Assembly (NCBI GenBank): GCA_000165345.1 | Contig: CM000432.1 | Location: 640,001 to 704,000, forward strand | Reading direction: 5' to 3' | Length of the DNA: 64,000 bases | Shown: positions 1,190 through 15,303 of the stretch, piece after piece | How positions within the stretch are numbered: the first letter of the stretch is position 1 | Layout of the letters: each line of letters starts with the position of its first letter | Program-made: the position numbers and the translations under genes | The notes under the pieces: model-generated | What the model was told of the DNA's origin: nothing | Databases searched by the model: none | The model's input: the letters and a program-made list of their open reading frames with translations, nothing else

Positions 1190-2272
1190 TTAGGTATCTA
1201 GAATTGCCTGTCTAATTAATTGCTTTTGTGCATCATTCAGTTCTGATGGCATTTTGAACTTTAATGTTACATATAAATCACCATATTCATTTGTGTTGCG
1301 AATTGGCATTCCCTTATTCTTGACCTTAAGTACATCTCCAAATGAAGTTATGCCATTCTTCTCAATATTTATATTTTTTCCATCAATATACTTCAATGGA
1401 AGATTAAACCCTAGCAAAGCATCAGCAAGGGTAATTTCCAAATTGGTATGAAGGTCATTCCCTACCCTTTTAAATTTGTTATTCTCAACCTCAAAAATTA
1501 CAATGATAAAGTCACCAGGCTCCTGATTAAGTTTTTGCTCTCCTGAGCCCTCAAACCTGATTTTGTCGCCAGAATACATTCCTGGATCAATATATGCAGT
1601 TAATTTTGCAGTCTCTAATTCTGTTGGCCCATTGGGGCACTGCTTACAATTTTTATCCCATCCCTTTTTCCTTGCAACACATGTTGGGTCATTAACTTGA
1701 TGTTGAACCATAAATCCAGGGCCCATCTGCTGAGTAAAGAGTTTTGTCCCTGCAGCTGCACAATCACTCCTATTCTTTAAACAATCATTTGCATTTATGC
1801 ACAAAACAGGCCTAATAAATGAAATAGTGATCATTTCTCCAAAATAAAGCTGCTCAAGAGTCATAAATATTTTGAATGTAGAGTCTGGAACCCTATACCT
1901 TTCACCATCTCCTCTCCCTGGCCCCATTCCAAATAGATTTCCGAATCCCATTGAGAAAAGATCAAATGGATCATTGGATTGAAAGCCTTCGAGATGTTGT
2001 TTTAGTCCATCTTCACCAAATTTATCATATATGCCTCTTTTCTCAGGATCAGCTAAAACCTCATAAGCCGTTGCAATCTCCTTAAATTTCTCTGATGCAT
2101 CCGGAGACGGATTTCTGTCTGGGTGATATTTCAAGCTTTTTTGTCTATATGCTTTCTTAATTTCTGTATCACTGGCACTTTTTTTTATCCCTAAAATATC
2201 ATAGTAAGACTTTCCAAAGGTACCATCAAAGAGTTTAAATAGAAATAGTAAAAATATTAATAAACCTCTCAT
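1190..2272 (-). CDS. DnaJ/Hsp40 co-chaperone with N-terminal signal peptide (ER-lumenal ERdj3/DNAJB11-like)
   Basis: A hydrophobic N-terminus ([15 protein letters not shown]) is followed by a canonical J domain '[33 protein letters not shown]...[27 protein letters not shown]'. A Gly/Phe-rich linker ([12 protein letters not shown]) and a Cys-rich segment (CINANDC...C...CKQC) follow, then a C-terminal substrate-binding region. The ATG is at 2272 on the minus strand. Confidence 0.85.
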
Positions 2273-2528
2273 TTCCTATCCTATAAGCTGAACTGATTTC
2301 TTATTATAATTATGCGCCTATTGTTCCATCTTCCCCCACCAATTTCCCCTCATTTACAGCATAATGAAAATTGAGTATTTTTGTATAGCAATTAAATATT
2401 CCCATTCCAATATGATGTTCTTTTTTTATATGGCATAGAAGAATAATTTGCTAAACTACAAATATATAAATCATTGAAAACTCCTGGAAAATAATTGAAA
2501 GTTTGAACTGTTGAAGCTAAATTTCATA

Positions 2529-3815
2529 ATGGCTAGTAGTTCAAAAGAGAAAATAACTCATGTGGGCGTATTCGGAAGTTTTATTAGTGAAGTAGGGCTG
2601 AAAAACATAAAAGAATACAGCTATAAGAGTGGGGGGGTTACATTTTTAGATTATGCAATGAATCCTTTTTGGGAGTTCTTTGCACACCAAATCCCAGAAT
2701 GTATCTCTCCTAACTTGTTGACTATATTCGGGTTTTTATGTTCTCTTATTGCAATGTTATTAACAATGATGACTTGTCCAATGCTAGATAACGCAATTCC
2801 TTTAAACCTCTCATTATTCATATCCCTTCTTTTATTTCTTTATCAGACTTTTGATGCAGCTGATGGAAAACATGCAAGAAGACTGAAAATTAGCTCACCC
2901 TTAGGGCAACTGCTTGATCATGGACTTGATTCATACACAACTATTTTTTTTTCAACAATATTTTGTGCATGTTGCAAGATGGGATGGAGTTATAAATTCT
3001 TTATTTTTTTGTCTATAGTTCAGTTTAAAATGTTCTCATTTATTTGGTTGGAGTGTCACTGTAAGATTTTTCGGTGTTCGTCCTCAGATTATTTAGGAGT
3101 AACAGAAAGCCAGTTGATTGTGATGTTTTTTACAGTTTATTCTTCAACAAATGGTTTTAATATTTTATTTAAGAATTTATTGTTCAATATTTCAACAATT
3201 GATTTAATAATATTATCTATTATTGCTACAGGCTTCATTACACTAATAAATGATATCCTGTCAGGCCTGGATGAGTGTAGAAGCACAACTTCAAAAAAAG
3301 TCGCATCTTTGGAAATTTGTGGTGTATTGTGCCATTTAACGTTCCAATTTCTATTCTTAAGTTCGGGCACATACAAAAAATTCCCGATTATGACTATGTT
3401 CATTTTGACTACAAGCAGTTCAATTGTTGCACTCAGAATGAACGTATCATCATTTACTCTCGAAGAATTACCTTATGTACATTGGCCAGCACTCCCTTTT
3501 TATACTTCTTCGGTATTTCTTTTATTTGGGAGAAATATATTCGGCAAGTTTTTTGACTCACAAATAATATTACTAATTGTAGCATTATGGAATGTAATAT
3601 ATACAATAGATTATGTATCCATTATTATCAATTCAATTTGTCATCATTTAAGCATTTCTCTAATCTCTACAAAAATCTCAAATGGCGATAGTGCGGAAAA
3701 AAATACTTCTGATAAAGCTACAGCTAATAATTTCTCAAATAATCGAGCAGAGGATATAAGTTCAAAACTTAAACTATCTATATCGCGTTCATTTAAGAAG
3801 AATCATCGTAATTAA
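2529..3815 (+). CDS. CDP-alcohol phosphatidyltransferase family enzyme, choline/ethanolamine phosphotransferase (CEPT/CPT/EPT-like)
   Basis: It carries the signature D-G-x2-A-R-x7-8-G-x3-D-x3-D as 'DAADGKHARRLKISSPLGQLLDHGLDS' and has multiple TM helices. The first in-frame ATG is at 2529; the track's 2511 start is a TTG. Confidence 0.85.
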   Translation: MASSSKEKITHVGVFGSFISEVGLKNIKEYSYKSGGVTFLDYAMNPFWEFFAHQIPECISPNLLTIFGFLCSLIAMLLTMMTCPMLDNAIPLNLSLFISLLLFLYQTFDAADGKHARRLKISSPLGQLLDHGLDSYTTIFFSTIFCACCKMGWSYKFFIFLSIVQFKMFSFIWLECHCKIFRCSSSDYLGVTESQLIVMFFTVYSSTNGFNILFKNLLFNISTIDLIILSIIATGFITLINDILSGLDECRSTTSKKVASLEICGVLCHLTFQFLFLSSGTYKKFPIMTMFILTTSSSIVALRMNVSSFTLEELPYVHWPALPFYTSSVFLLFGRNIFGKFFDSQIILLIVALWNVIYTIDYVSIIINSICHHLSISLISTKISNGDSAEKNTSDKATANNFSNNRAEDISSKLKLSISRSFKKNHRN

Positions 3816-11044: not shown

Positions 11045-11417
11045 GATCGACTGTAAATTTGGTCCCTAAGTCATATTTATCTGGAAGTTTGTTATTTACA
11101 ATCTAGTTATTTTAATGTACTTTTTTGCGATCCATTAATATCGTCCACTGCCGCAAAAAGACATTTCAAAAAATAACACTATGGAATCAATCGAGTTAAA
11201 ACTAACGAATAAATAAACTGTCTTTTACAATGATTAAGAAATATATTAATATTGTAGCCAAAAATGGAGTGAATATTGGCAAAGAAATCATTTGGATTGG
11301 TATTACAACTACTATTACTCTGTGTGTCCCCGTTCTCTATTACTATGAAAAAGAGTGCCAAATGTATGAAATTCACGCGAAAATGCTGCAGGGATAAAAT
11401 AGAATTTACTCTAAAAA

Positions 11418-12190
11418 TTAATATATACCTAGTAATTCTTCCATCTCACTGCAAATTTTTGTGCAGCAAATGTACGAAGGCATACTAACATCAGATAACG
11501 ATATATAATGAGTAAATTTCGAAGTAAATTGGCCACAGCTGTTATTAGTCGCTGAAGCTCCAATAACAAAATTAATGTTATCTGCTCCGTTGCGAATTTT
11601 AGTTGCAATCTCATTTCTACAAAACTCTTGAAGGCTTACCTTTTTTGCCATTCTGGAAAGTCCAACAACTACTTCGCTATTTGAAAGATATTCTTCTATA
11701 GAACTATTTAATAAAGAGATGAGAACTGTATTTTCTTCGTCTGGAAGCTTAAGCTCTCCATTTGGAGAGGATAAGAATTCAGAAAAAACTTTGCTGAATA
11801 CCTTAAAAGATCTTGGAACACGGAATTTCGGGCTTACCCTAATCAATTTACCATCTAAATTTAAAATCAAAATATCTGAAAGACAGCCCGACTTGCATAA
11901 TGGGCTGTCAAGTAGCATTAAAAGCGAGTTATGGATTATATCAGGACGAAATTCGTCGCTATCAATTAATTTCATGTCTCTCTCGAGTACTTTTTCTTCT
12001 GTTAGGAGCTCTTTTTTCCCATTATTTTTATTTACAAACAATGAACTATTTTTCCAGAAATTAAATAATTTTATAGAGTATGTCTAATAACTTACGCATC
12101 AATTAGAATAATATTTATCCTAATACTTGCCAACTTGGAACTCGTTGATAATTGTTTCCTAATTTTATTACGCTTAATAAGCGAATCCAT
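11418..12190 (-). CDS. EMG1/Nep1-like rRNA pseudouridine-N1 methyltransferase, divergent paralogue A (two exons: 12190..12096 and 12045..11418; intron 12095..12046)
   Basis: The minus strand has an ATG at 12190 preceded by an in-frame TAA. Exon 1 encodes 'MDSLIKRNKIRKQLSTSSKLASIRINIILIDA' and ends in a GTAAGT donor. A 50-nt intron follows, ending in ...AAAAATAG. Exon 2 then continues the frame as 'ASLFVNKNNGKK...FRPDIIHNSLLMLLDSPLCKSGCL...RVPRSFKVFS...'. The join recreates the conserved EMG1 N-terminal 'vv-L--A-SLE' motif. The downstream RPDI-H-LL-LLDSPL-K-G-L and VPR-FKRF motifs are EMG1 hallmarks. Confidence 0.6.
12046..12095 (-). other. spliceosomal intron (50 nt, phase 2) of EMG1-like paralogue A
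   Basis: It has a GTAAGT donor and a TAG acceptor on the minus strand. Splicing restores the frame and a conserved Ala-Ala-Ser-Leu junction. Confidence 0.55.
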
Positions 12191-12253
12191 TTAAATTGCG
12201 AAAAAAAAGAAAAATTATTTATCCGTTAAAAGCGCCCTCTACTTTGTTAGAAA

Positions 12254-13041
12254 ATGAATTCAAATATAATTAATGTTCCAAAAGACCTTTCTGAATGGAA
12301 GGATAAAGAGAGGGTGTTTATTTTGCTTGATCGGGCGTAAGTTATTTCAATATAATTTGTAATTAATGATTTAACTTTGTTAGATTTTTGGAACTATATG
12401 AGAAGAAAGATAAATCTCTCGAGTTGTTAAACGGAATTGACCATCCGAAAAAAAAAATAGAGGAATACTGTTCATTGTATTCATCCAAGATATTTTCAAA
12501 GGAAGAAATGATTTTGAATATTAGGCCAGATATATTGCATCAGTGTCTGCTTTCACTACTGGATTCTCCACTGAATAAGAGCGGAAGATTATTGGTATAT
12601 ATTCGCACTATGAGTAATGTATTAATCGAAGTGAACCCACAGCTTTCTGTCCCAAGAAGCTTTAAAGAGTTTTCTTCATTAATGGTCAACTTACTAGTCA
12701 AGCGTAAAATTACTGCAGTTAATGGAAATACTTCTTTGATGAGAATAGTTAAGAATGATATCGACAAAATCCTGCCTGTGGGAGGAAAAAAATACGGGCT
12801 TTCACTTAATGGTACTCAGAAGAACATTAGGGCTCTGATTAATGAATTATATTCAAGTGAAGACTACAAAATACGCAATAGTTCAGTAACATTTGTGGTC
12901 GGTGCGGTCGCTTATGGCGATCCAATACAGAGTTGTGATTTTATAGAAGAAATAATTAGTATTAGTTCATACCCACTATCTGCAGCGCTCTGTTGTTCAA
13001 AAATTTGCAATGAATTCGAATATTTGTGGAAGATTTGCTAG
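12254..13041 (+). CDS. EMG1: EMG1/Nep1 ribosome-biogenesis methyltransferase, paralogue B (two exons: 12254..12336 and 12384..13041; intron 12337..12383)
   Basis: The ATG at 12254 is preceded by an in-frame TAG. Exon 1 encodes 'MNSNIINVPKDLSEWKDKERVFILLDRA' and is followed by GTAAGT. A 47-nt intron ends in TTGTTAG. Exon 2 encodes 'FLELYEKK...IRPDILHQCLLSLLDSPLNKSGRLLVYIRTMSNVLIEVNPQLSVPRSFKEFSSLMVNLL...YPLSAALCCSKIC'. This is a near-consensus EMG1 fold sequence. Confidence 0.7.
12337..12383 (+). other. spliceosomal intron (47 nt, phase 2) of EMG1 paralogue B
   Basis: It has GTAAGT at 12337 and AG at 12382-12383. Its position in the protein alignment is identical to the intron of paralogue A. 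Confidence 0.6.
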
Positions 13042-13245
13042 CCGTAATTGATAACTTAAGGTTGATAAACAACTTCCATAATGAATATTTATTGCAGATT
13101 TATTAATTTGAGTTTTATTTTCAAATAAGTTAGTTGTTAGAATTATTTAACATTTTTTCGATTTAATTAAATGCGGTATGTTGTGGGCAATTGCAATTTT
13201 TTATTTACAAAACTTTAAATGATGATAAATGGTTGACTTAGGAAG

Positions 13246-15303
13246 ATGAACAGAGAATCGCACTTAAACTCGAATAAACATTTATCCAATATAAAAATCT
13301 TGAGCCCTCATTTCAAAAAACTTAAAACTTTTAATAGCCTCCAAAATCAAGAAAAAAAAGTATATCGCATTATTTCCAGATTTATAAGTAATAATGAAGT
13401 TACTTATCCGTTATCTCAACTGACTGAGTTTTTTGAAGATTATAACGCGGAAGAATTATCATGGAAGAAGTGTTTCACGATGCTCTGCCTTTTTCTTGAC
13501 CATCAAATAATTAGAGGTTTTTATCAACATACCGAGCATAAAAAGCGGAATGATGGCTGTTTTCTTGATTTTTTTTGTAAAAAAAGTGAACAGGAACTCC
13601 TAAAAACGGAAAACAATGAAAGAGAGAGCTCTCAATCAAATAAAAAAAGATTGCATAATAACATGGAGGATAAAGAAAACTTATATCCGAAAAAAAAGAT
13701 AAAAAGAAATGAGCAATTTGAGGAATTACCACTCGAAAATAATCATGAATTGTTCAACATATATCTACTAAATAAGCTGGAAAATGTCAAAAACCTATAT
13801 AACCAAACATTCAAAAACATTTCAAAAGAAACGGAAATATCTGATGATGCTATAATCATGGAAAAATCTTTTTATGACTTAATTGGACTTAAATATACAT
13901 ATTATACAACTTCATTTTTTAACAGCTCTTCAATGAATGTTAAAAAAATCATACTAGATAAAAATTTGAGTGATAATATTGAAGTTTTTGATAATATTAA
14001 TTTGTGGTGTGTTCAGAGAATTAACCAAAGGGAGTCTATTTCAAAAATGATTAATTTGAATATGGATAAAAATAATTTGAGATCAATTTTGAACTTATCT
14101 TCAGATGTCTCTGATGCAGAAATAATTAAAAGGTGCGAGATTTTGCTTAAATGGTTATTTCTTCCAAATGAAGATACTTCAGATTCTGGAAATGTTTTTA
14201 AGTCATATAATAGACTTAAAGAAGCAATCATAAATTGGAACTCTGAAAAATGTGTTCAGAATAATGAAAATGCTGATATTGATGTAAGGAACAAACACTT
14301 CTTTACAGCAAAATCAAACTTTCAGAAATTTGTAATTGAATTTGTGTTAGACAGACATAATGAACAGCAAACAAAATGTTACAATCCTTTTTGGACATTA
14401 GGAATAAATCCAAAAAAGTTTAAAATTGAACAGCTATCGTCTATTAAAAAAAAACTATTATTGTTTACCCATCCCGACAAAATTTTAGAAAAGAGGATGA
14501 AAGCAAAGGCCAATGAAGCTTATATTATTATTCGAGAATCGCTAGAACTCATAATTAAATTATGTAAAACAAACCAAAACATAATTGAGTCTTTCCCTAA
14601 GGGCCCAGAATTATCATATGACTTTAATTTATATCTTGAAAAATATGTACATGATCAAATTAAACCTCTGGAAATAGTTGAAATGAATGCATCGCTCATA
14701 GAAGCAAATGGTAAGGAAACGCTCAAGCTTCCTCCAGGGATTAGAGTGTATACAAAGCTAAGTAAAATGACTACAAATGTCAAATTAAAGGTTTATTTGA
14801 CATTACCATTTATGGGATCAAATACAATAATCGAAAAAAACCAACTCACGGAGTATATTTTCAATACATATTTTATAGAAACGAATATTGAATCTGAAAG
14901 AGAAGATATTTTAATTAAGCTATCTGGAGATTGTGTTTATTTCGAAATTTCAGATATACTATTTTCCGGTTTTCCCGGTGTTACAGAATTGTCGTATTAT
15001 ATTGGCGTCCAAGTAGCTTTTCACAGCTCATTTTCAAAAATAATATGGAAAAAAGTCAAGACTAAGCTACCAACTGAATCTGAGATAATTAAGGGATTCT
15101 CAAAGAATGGGATTAAAAGATACTTGGAACTATATTGCAGAACTTGGGGCCATGAAAGAAAATGTGTGCAAAACATATTTTCTGCAGCAAAATTGTGGAA
15201 CGTAATCGATAATACACCACGCAAAGCCGAACTAATCAAGGTGTTAATTGCGTTAATGGAAAATTCGTATAAAACATTGCTAATCCATTCACAAAATTTT
15301 TAG
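13246..15303 (+). CDS. hypothetical 685-aa protein containing a J-domain-like segment
   Basis: It has an ATG start. An internal segment 'YNPFWTLGINPKKFKIEQLSSIKKKLLLFTHPDKILEKRMKAKANEAYIIIRESLELI' aligns to the J-domain pattern (ILG...EIKKAYRKLA-KYHPDK...A...F..I..AYE.L), including the HPD tripeptide. The rest is low-complexity. Confidence 0.5.
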   Translation: MNRESHLNSNKHLSNIKILSPHFKKLKTFNSLQNQEKKVYRIISRFISNNEVTYPLSQLTEFFEDYNAEELSWKKCFTMLCLFLDHQIIRGFYQHTEHKKRNDGCFLDFFCKKSEQELLKTENNERESSQSNKKRLHNNMEDKENLYPKKKIKRNEQFEELPLENNHELFNIYLLNKLENVKNLYNQTFKNISKETEISDDAIIMEKSFYDLIGLKYTYYTTSFFNSSSMNVKKIILDKNLSDNIEVFDNINLWCVQRINQRESISKMINLNMDKNNLRSILNLSSDVSDAEIIKRCEILLKWLFLPNEDTSDSGNVFKSYNRLKEAIINWNSEKCVQNNENADIDVRNKHFFTAKSNFQKFVIEFVLDRHNEQQTKCYNPFWTLGINPKKFKIEQLSSIKKKLLLFTHPDKILEKRMKAKANEAYIIIRESLELIIKLCKTNQNIIESFPKGPELSYDFNLYLEKYVHDQIKPLEIVEMNASLIEANGKETLKLPPGIRVYTKLSKMTTNVKLKVYLTLPFMGSNTIIEKNQLTEYIFNTYFIETNIESEREDILIKLSGDCVYFEISDILFSGFPGVTELSYYIGVQVAFHSSFSKIIWKKVKTKLPTESEIIKGFSKNGIKRYLELYCRTWGHERKCVQNIFSAAKLWNVIDNTPRKAELIKVLIALMENSYKTLLIHSQNF

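Follow-up and report, generated by a model that had tools for sequence, protein, structure and literature searches.

Why does Cryptosporidium parvum carry two diverged genes of the Nep1/EMG1 family, where yeast and human have only one? The two genes, cgd4_2830 on the minus strand and cgd4_2840 on the plus strand, stand head to head on chromosome 4, in a stretch of 64,000 nucleotides (GenBank contig CM000432.1, positions 640,001 to 704,000) that we call the window and whose own coordinates we use throughout. The pair, its paralogy and intron-containing gene models are already public, and the 2004 annotation already reads "adjacent genes paralogs", so the observation itself is not new. What may be new is that apicomplexans carry two types of Nep1/EMG1 that have lost complementary parts of a two-subunit active site. 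To the existing annotation we add this apicomplexan-wide two-type system, the loss of 'invariant' arginines from the supposedly normal copy, and the reciprocal pattern of the losses. Our leading explanation, to which we give even odds, is that the two proteins, co-expressed from a shared promoter, pair as a heterodimer in which one composite active site works.

The locus was identified by exact-sequence look-up. The 240-aa product of the minus gene is deposited for C. parvum as Cgd4_2830 (QOY42156.1, WKS77458.1 and others) and the 246-aa product of the plus gene as cpbgf_4002840 / CPATCC_0019810 (QOY42155.1 and others), which we read as cgd4_2840; older records for the pair are EAK87931 and EAK87930. 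Searches of the accessible literature on the gene identifiers and on Nep1/EMG1 in Cryptosporidium or other apicomplexans found nothing relevant. By profile, fold and catalytic loop, both products are members of the Nep1/EMG1 family of pseudouridine-N1 methyltransferases, which acts in small-subunit (SSU) ribosome assembly. The Pfam EMG1 model (PF03587, curated cut-off 28.2 bits) is covered by both from position 1 to 197 of its 197 positions, with 198.9 bits for the plus protein and 137.6 bits for the minus protein, and the two proteins share 35% identity over 184 aa. Against the solved yeast, Chaetomium and human Emg1/Nep1 chains, phmmer returned E ~4e-39 for the plus protein (3.7e-39 to the yeast Emg1 chains) and E ~1e-15 for the minus protein. 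A preliminary description of the window had assigned the EMG1 fold to the minus copy, subject to a profile search. The Pfam profile, matched over its full length, and the predicted structure both confirm this fold: the AlphaFold2 model of the minus protein (pLDDT 75.8) found only Nep1/Emg1 structures among its top 23 Foldseek matches in the PDB, with TM scores of 0.58-0.83. The minus protein is modelled as a SPOUT protein with Nep1-specific extensions and, presumably, the alpha/beta-knot, and the plus protein is assigned the SPOUT/Nep1 fold from its sequence matches.

Comparison with other Cryptosporidium species indicates that both genes are clearly under purifying selection and that the old duplicate is still functional. 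The ratio of nonsynonymous to synonymous substitution (dN/dS, Nei-Gojobori) was 0.05-0.07 for the plus gene and 0.11-0.12 for the minus gene, rough values with synonymous sites near saturation, and neighbour-joining (NJ) trees of each paralogue follow the species tree. The idea that the minus copy is a decaying pseudogene was ruled out by a reading frame that is intact in six species and a dN/dS of ~0.11.

We analyzed the conserved residues of the family in an alignment of 109 EMG1 proteins from outside Cryptosporidium, using yeast numbering. Arg88, Pro89, Asp90, His93, Asp101, Arg129, Arg132, Arg136 and Gly207 were invariant in all 109 proteins, and Ser233 was present in 108. Of these, the Cryptosporidium plus protein lacks only Arg129, replaced by Ser or Thr, and Arg136, replaced by Glu; its pocket for S-adenosylmethionine (SAM), formed by Gly207, Leu232 and Ser233 together with backbone contacts at positions 228, 230 and 232, is canonical. 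The minus protein keeps Arg129 and Arg132 and has Val, Ile or Leu in place of Arg136. It further changes Gln94 to Asn, Leu232 to Met or Ile, Ser233 to Pro, Trp249 to Leu and Tyr230 to Val or Ile. The Arg88-Pro89-Asp90-Ile91 loop, Asp101 and Arg132 are present in both paralogues of all six Cryptosporidium species, and the last residue of either protein aligns with yeast Leu252, whose carboxylate makes the C-terminal contact with the partner subunit in yeast Nep1. Both paralogues are thus atypical EMG1 members, since neither has Arg136 and the plus protein lacks Arg129 as well. The pair had been portrayed as one near-consensus and one strongly diverged copy. The divergence of the minus copy is evident in the alignment as changes in the SAM/substrate pocket, and the plus copy is indeed the closer of the two to the consensus, but it lacks two arginines that are present in 109 of 109 proteins.

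Is this pattern peculiar to Cryptosporidium? We ran an exhaustive profile search with the alignment of the minus proteins against 1.84 billion representative proteins. Scores above 250 bits were confined to Cryptosporidium proteins, and the next match reached 111 bits. The best other matches that scored higher against the minus than against the plus protein were all apicomplexan where named: Cardiosporidium cionae (KAF8822348), Porospora cf. gigantea, Polyplicarium translucidae, Rhytidocystis pertsovi, Theileria annulata (TA18685), Babesia duncani (KAK2196066) and Eimeria media (KAL8445319). We use 'minus-type' as a working name for this divergent apicomplexan EMG1-like paralogue, for which there is no curated family. 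The window's minus protein and the proteins of Cardiosporidium, Polyplicarium, Rhytidocystis, Theileria, Babesia and Eimeria have in common the signature FR[VI]PR[ST][FW]K[VL]FxKV[FM]xxFLxS at yeast positions 120-148. The fuller arm signature, K-[LV]-[IV]-x-[VI]-x-P-x-F-R-[VI]-P-R-[ST]-[FW]-K-[VL]-F-x-K-V-[FM]-x-x-F-L-x-S, in which Arg136 is replaced by Val, Leu or Ile and Leu140 by Val, is fitted by the window's minus protein with KLIRVSPKFRVPRSFKVFSKVFSEFLSS. Named plus-type relatives are Gregarina niphandrodes XP_011132951 and Cardiosporidium cionae KAF8820310. With KAF8822348 being minus-type and KAF8820310 plus-type, C. cionae has both types, and their residue pattern is the same as in Cryptosporidium.

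Across apicomplexans the losses are reciprocal: the plus-type keeps the SAM and catalytic residues and loses RNA-arm arginines, and the minus-type keeps Arg129 and Arg132 and has eroded SAM loops. Gly207 is kept in 8/8 plus-type and 5/15 minus-type proteins and Gln94 in 8/8 and 9/15, whereas Arg129 is kept in only 2/8 plus-type proteins as against 15/15 of the minus-type, and Arg132 in 5/8 as against 15/15. Arg136 is absent from every protein of either type (0/8 and 0/15). The same division is seen region by region. Within the minus-type no segment is better conserved than the arm core, with a mean pairwise identity of 0.65 compared to 0.49 within the plus-type, while for SAM loop 1 the values are 0.59 within the plus-type and 0.25 within the minus-type.

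The minus-type proteins of piroplasms and Eimeria (Theileria, Babesia, Eimeria and relatives) have Ser in place of Gly207, followed by insertions of ~10 to 30 residues in the first SAM loop, and from these sequence features they look non-catalytic. Those of Eimeria also carry N-terminal extensions of ~270-300 residues. The minus-like protein of Porospora has RPEL in place of RPDI (Asp90 to Glu), and its position 136 is occupied by Lys.

Bootstrapping of an NJ tree recovered the minus-type set, Porospora included, as monophyletic in 82% and the plus-type set in 72.5% of replicates. The shared signature and the two types in Cardiosporidium agree with this tree, which places the pair as two members of an old, apicomplexan-wide EMG1/Nep1 duplication that predates Cryptosporidium. 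An inverted duplication within the Cryptosporidium lineage, leaving one normal and one fast-evolving copy, would account for the adjacency of the genes and for the intron position common to both, and with distant outgroups only, the best NJ tree did join plus and minus (35% bootstrap). Once apicomplexan relatives entered the tree, however, a duplication specific to Cryptosporidium was rejected, as the two copies grouped in 0/200 replicates and the minus protein joined apicomplexan proteins at 82%. The occurrence of the minus-type signature in other apicomplexans, the presence of both types in Cardiosporidium and the non-canonical residues of the plus copy itself likewise speak against such an origin, which we regard as very improbable. 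Of the 'ancient inverted duplication' proposed in the preliminary description, an old and functional pair stands, but the event does not belong to the Cryptosporidium lineage.

How could two proteins that have each lost part of the active site still be useful? In yeast Nep1-RNA structures, the flipped target base lies between two monomers. Monomer A contributes Arg129, Arg132, Arg136, Asp90 and Asp101, and monomer B contributes SAM, Arg88, Gln94 and the backbone of Ser233; Arg129 and Arg136 were termed 'invariant', and alanine mutants of Arg88, Arg129, Arg132 and Arg136 showed reduced RNA binding (PMC3064781). When Emg1 is part of the yeast SSU processome, nucleotide 1191 sits in just one of its two active sites, and peptides of Sas10 and Nop14 block the other (bioRxiv 10.1101/175547). 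Because the arm and the SAM pocket come from opposite subunits in yeast, all Cryptosporidium-specific losses would fall on one composite site of a plus:minus dimer. We infer from this that a plus:minus heterodimer might replace the usual Nep1 homodimer. The plus-type subunit would give the SAM pocket together with the catalytic Arg88, Gln94 and Ser233, and the minus-type subunit would give the RNA-recognition arm including Arg129 and Arg132. Minus-type arm and plus-type pocket would form one working and nearly canonical composite site on the helix-31 loop of 18S rRNA. The RNA of this loop is presumed to read GACUCAACACG, with U or pseudouridine as the target. The opposite composite site, made of the plus arm (Ser129/Glu136) and the minus pocket (Asn94/Met232/Pro233), would be degenerate on both sides and probably serve as a docking surface only, comparable to the Emg1 site that is blocked in the yeast SSU processome. 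Such an enzyme could have arisen when an already asymmetric homodimer was duplicated and each copy lost its unused half. Head-to-head transcription from the 63-bp spacer with its conserved element would then provide matched expression of the two subunits.

The preliminary description had suggested that the second copy acquired a new RNA target or became a pseudoenzyme. This overlooks the two-subunit nature of Nep1 active sites, and the residue pattern fits a heterodimer better. We nevertheless considered that the two proteins might be independent homodimers, the plus-type working as the 18S pseudouridine-N1 methyltransferase and the minus-type having moved to another RNA target or assembly step. 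A minus-type arm that is remodelled yet strongly conserved across apicomplexans is what a new specific ligand would produce, the Cryptosporidium minus proteins keep Gly207, Arg88, Asp90 and Asp101, and in Porospora the minus-like gene has no plus-type gene linked to it within at least 8 kb. A plus-type homodimer, though, would have two arms lacking Arg129 and Arg136, residues whose alanine mutants reduced RNA binding in yeast. The loss of Gly207 and the SAM-loop insertions in piroplasm, Eimeria and other minus-types make a free-standing methyltransferase role unlikely there, and the reciprocal losses would be left unexplained. We judge two separate homodimers to be unlikely.

A third explanation holds that the minus-type is a lone, non-catalytic RNA-binding or scaffold factor of the SSU processome, or that neither protein methylates any longer and the two serve purely in assembly. 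Indeed, the essential role of yeast Emg1 is independent of SAM binding (PMC2241868), and the minus-type carries S233P, Q94N and L232M/I, with SAM loops that are degenerate in many of its members. The plus-type, however, is under strong purifying selection and keeps every SAM and catalytic residue that we checked, an argument for retained catalysis. Moreover, all described Nep1 structures are dimers with the active site at the interface, and both proteins keep the exact C-terminal end that is used in the dimer contact. We consider a purely structural role for the minus-type, or for both, to be improbable.

Several observations weigh against the heterodimer that we favor. Our literature searches found no interaction data for the two proteins. 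Arg136 is lost in both types, so that even the proposed live site would be non-canonical. The remodelling extends over the whole minus-type arm and would fit a different RNA target just as well, and the minus SAM pocket, with Gly207 kept, L232M/I, S233P, Y230V/I and hydrophobic substitutions, is altered and not obviously destroyed. Yeast strains with SAM-binding mutants or R88D still grow (PMC2241868), and the loss of a residue therefore need not map neatly to function. The trees are NJ only and the minus-type branch is long, which makes its placement unreliable and the exact origin of the clade uncertain, and the comparison set includes several sequences from metagenome or SRA assemblies. Both types in one species are seen in Cryptosporidium and Cardiosporidium only, and there is no second EMG1 gene within 8 kb of the minus-like gene of Porospora.

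We compared the pair with known systems. The Nep1 (Emg1) homodimers of yeast and human (PDB 3OII/3OIJ/3OIN, 5FAI, 5WLC) are of the same Pfam family and fold, and the R-P-D-I catalytic loop, Asp101, Arg132 and the C-terminal end are all kept in Cryptosporidium. The differences are the two diverged genes instead of one, and the residues Arg136 (lost in both types), Arg129 (lost in plus) and Gln94, Leu232 and Ser233 (changed in minus). The logic that we propose is that of Trm6/Trm61 and of Tad2/Tad3 (ADAT2/ADAT3), in which a homo-oligomer was duplicated and one paralogue keeps the cofactor or catalytic site and the other substrate binding. METTL3/METTL14 likewise consists of an active subunit and a paralogous RNA-binding subunit. 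These three pairs have other folds, being Rossmann-like methyltransferases or a deaminase, whereas the pair described here is predicted to be of the SPOUT class. Complementary retention, with the cofactor site kept in one protein and the substrate-binding element in the other, is also what the residue counts and regional identities suggest for Cryptosporidium.

A 2007 survey of SPOUT enzymes named Trm6/Trm61 and Tad2/Tad3 as precedents and did no more than speculate on a heterodimer for the yeast pair Ygr283c/Ymr310c; neither this survey nor a 2022 SPOUT review, in which the term is absent, describes a SPOUT heterodimer. With somewhat less than even confidence, we suggest that the Nep1 of apicomplexans is obligately heterodimeric, built from two ancient paralogues and with only one of its composite sites live; it would be the first heterodimeric SPOUT methyltransferase. 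The trypanosomatid prozyme pairs (AdoMetDC/prozyme and PRMT1 ENZ/PRO) are similar in that a duplication in a parasite lineage left a degenerate paralogue which is needed as partner of the active enzyme. There one partner is catalytically dead and activates the other, whereas in the Cryptosporidium pair each member seems to lack the half of a shared site that the other keeps.

If the heterodimer exists, a homodimeric knotted methyltransferase has evolved into a fixed asymmetric enzyme, and the asymmetry that blocking peptides impose on the yeast homodimer has become fixed in genes. This would explain why Arg129 and Arg136, which had been thought invariant, are absent here. An essential step of ribosome assembly would then have a feature specific to parasites, in Cryptosporidium and perhaps also in Theileria, Babesia and Eimeria. 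Being confined to this lineage and probably required for making the 40S subunit, the system would represent a parasite-specific target.

The gene models behind the two proteins each consist of two exons. On the minus strand, exon 1 of cgd4_2830 (12096..12190, 95 nt) starts with the ATG at 12190 and encodes residues 1-31 plus 2 nt. It is followed by a 50-nt intron (12046..12095) with the ends GTAAGT...TAG, in phase 2 within an Ala codon, and by exon 2 with the stop codon (11418..12045), which encodes residues 32-240. On the plus strand, exon 1 of cgd4_2840 (12254..12336, 83 nt) starts with the ATG at 12254 and encodes residues 1-27 plus 2 nt, the 47-nt intron (12337..12383; GTAAGT...TAG) lies in phase 2 in the homologous Ala codon, and exon 2 with the stop codon spans 12384..13041. 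The start codons are separated by the 63 bp of 12191..12253. The coordinates, the spacing and the phase-2 introns of 47 and 50 nt at the same codon had all been proposed in the preliminary description and are borne out by the sequence.

In the open reading frame (ORF) listing and in our reading of 11200-13300, the unspliced long ORFs run from 11418-12041 (minus) and 12388-13041 (plus). Both have no sensible start codon and lack the first beta-strand of the EMG1 domain. As unspliced read-through meets an immediate stop in each frame and the spliced products equal the deposited proteins, the 5' exon and the intron are needed in both genes, and the earlier claim that these short exons supply the missing N-terminal segment holds. 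The intron splits an Ala between LLDRA and FLEL in the plus protein (residue 28) and between LIDA and SLFV in the minus protein (residue 32), at position 6 of the Pfam EMG1 model in both; the Pfam match begins at residue 23 (plus) and 27 (minus). Exon 1 encodes MNSNIINVPKDL...VFILLDRA in the plus gene; in the minus gene it encodes the basic patch KRNKIRK and then the first beta-strand INIILIDA. Exon 2 of the plus gene contains the canonical catalytic loop RPDILHQC, the SAM loops VGAV and ISSYPLSAA, and the RNA arm PQLSVPRSFKEFSS lacking Arg129/Arg136. Exon 2 of the minus gene contains the catalytic loop RPDIIHNS, the RNA arm PKFRVPRSFKVFSKVF and the altered SAM loops IGAS and LSDVSMPSY.

The head-to-head pair is also found in C. 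andersoni, C. ubiquitum, C. felis, C. bovis and C. canis. A look at other Cryptosporidium species had been suggested before, and in these five both copies and the shared intron position are kept. In C. andersoni, C. ubiquitum, C. canis and C. bovis, a script reproduced the annotated protein lengths with single GT...AG introns of 45-54 nt; exon 1 measured 83 nt in the plus gene and 95 or 113 nt in the minus gene, and the intron was in phase 2 at the homologous codon. In the minus gene of C. felis, inspected by eye, exon 1 is the same and is followed by a GTAGGT...CAG intron at the conserved position. Since layout and intron are kept across Cryptosporidium species, chance can be excluded. The deposited minus-type model of C. 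felis comprises only 166 aa and looks like an annotation error because the left-out exon 1 and intron are visible in the DNA (L003 ~2166-2950, minus strand).

The N-termini encoded by exon 1 differ between the types. In the basic patch of the minus-type, Arg7, Asn8, Lys9, Arg11 and Lys12 are invariant in seven sequences from intestinal Cryptosporidium, and the plus-type N-terminus MNSNIIxVPKDL is conserved but not basic. The basic patch as a piggy-back nuclear import signal for the pair is suggestive in Cryptosporidium and inconsistent in other lineages, and we gave this idea little weight.

Where does the common intron come from? The simplest reading is that the intron predates the duplication and survived in both Cryptosporidium copies; parallel intron gain is a possible alternative origin of the shared position. 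Descent from a widely shared eukaryotic intron was not supported, as Nematostella has a phase-0 intron 6 codons downstream and Polarella a phase-1 intron ~3 codons downstream, while the EMG1 gene of Paramecium has no intron there and the minus-like gene of Porospora is intronless. Recent gene conversion is unlikely as well, since the two introns have no more than GTAAGTTATT in common and the peptides encoded by exon 1 show no relation outside the beta-strand. The minus-like EMG1 gene of Porospora cf. gigantea A (L006/L007 8001-8777) is a single exon located between a prefoldin gene and a CCCH zinc-finger gene.

The spacer between the start codons measures 50-133 bp across the six species and is presumed to be a shared bidirectional promoter. 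A conserved block, CCGTTAAAAGCGCCC (12223..12237 on the plus strand), aligns in C. parvum, C. ubiquitum, C. canis and C. felis, and the longer block CCGTTAAnAGCGCCC is present in the spacers of four species. The core AGCGCCC occurs in the spacers of 5/6 species (C. parvum, C. ubiquitum, C. canis, C. felis and C. bovis, not C. andersoni). In the window, with its G+C content of 29%, AGCGCCC has one match, which lies inside the spacer, where 0.53 would be expected in the whole window. We take the GCGCC core of the block to recall the E2F-like motifs reported for Cryptosporidium promoters.

An Rfam scan of the whole window (1-64000) returned no family at gathering score. A 55-aa ORF on the plus strand (11230-11397) matched Tom22 weakly (E = 0.006, short of the Pfam cut-off) and is syntenic with a C. 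andersoni gene that carries a weak Tom22 match (L001 4641-4962); it may be only the last exon of a spliced gene. The 3' ends of this ORF and of the minus EMG1 gene converge tightly, their stop codons being only 20 nt apart. Downstream of the plus gene, a 685-aa ORF on the plus strand (13246-15303) had no Pfam match at E <= 0.01. By eye, it contains a J-domain-like stretch (LGINPKKF...LLLFTHPDK...ANEAYIIIRESLELI), and it is syntenic in C. ubiquitum (683 aa), C. felis (667 aa) and C. andersoni (712 aa).

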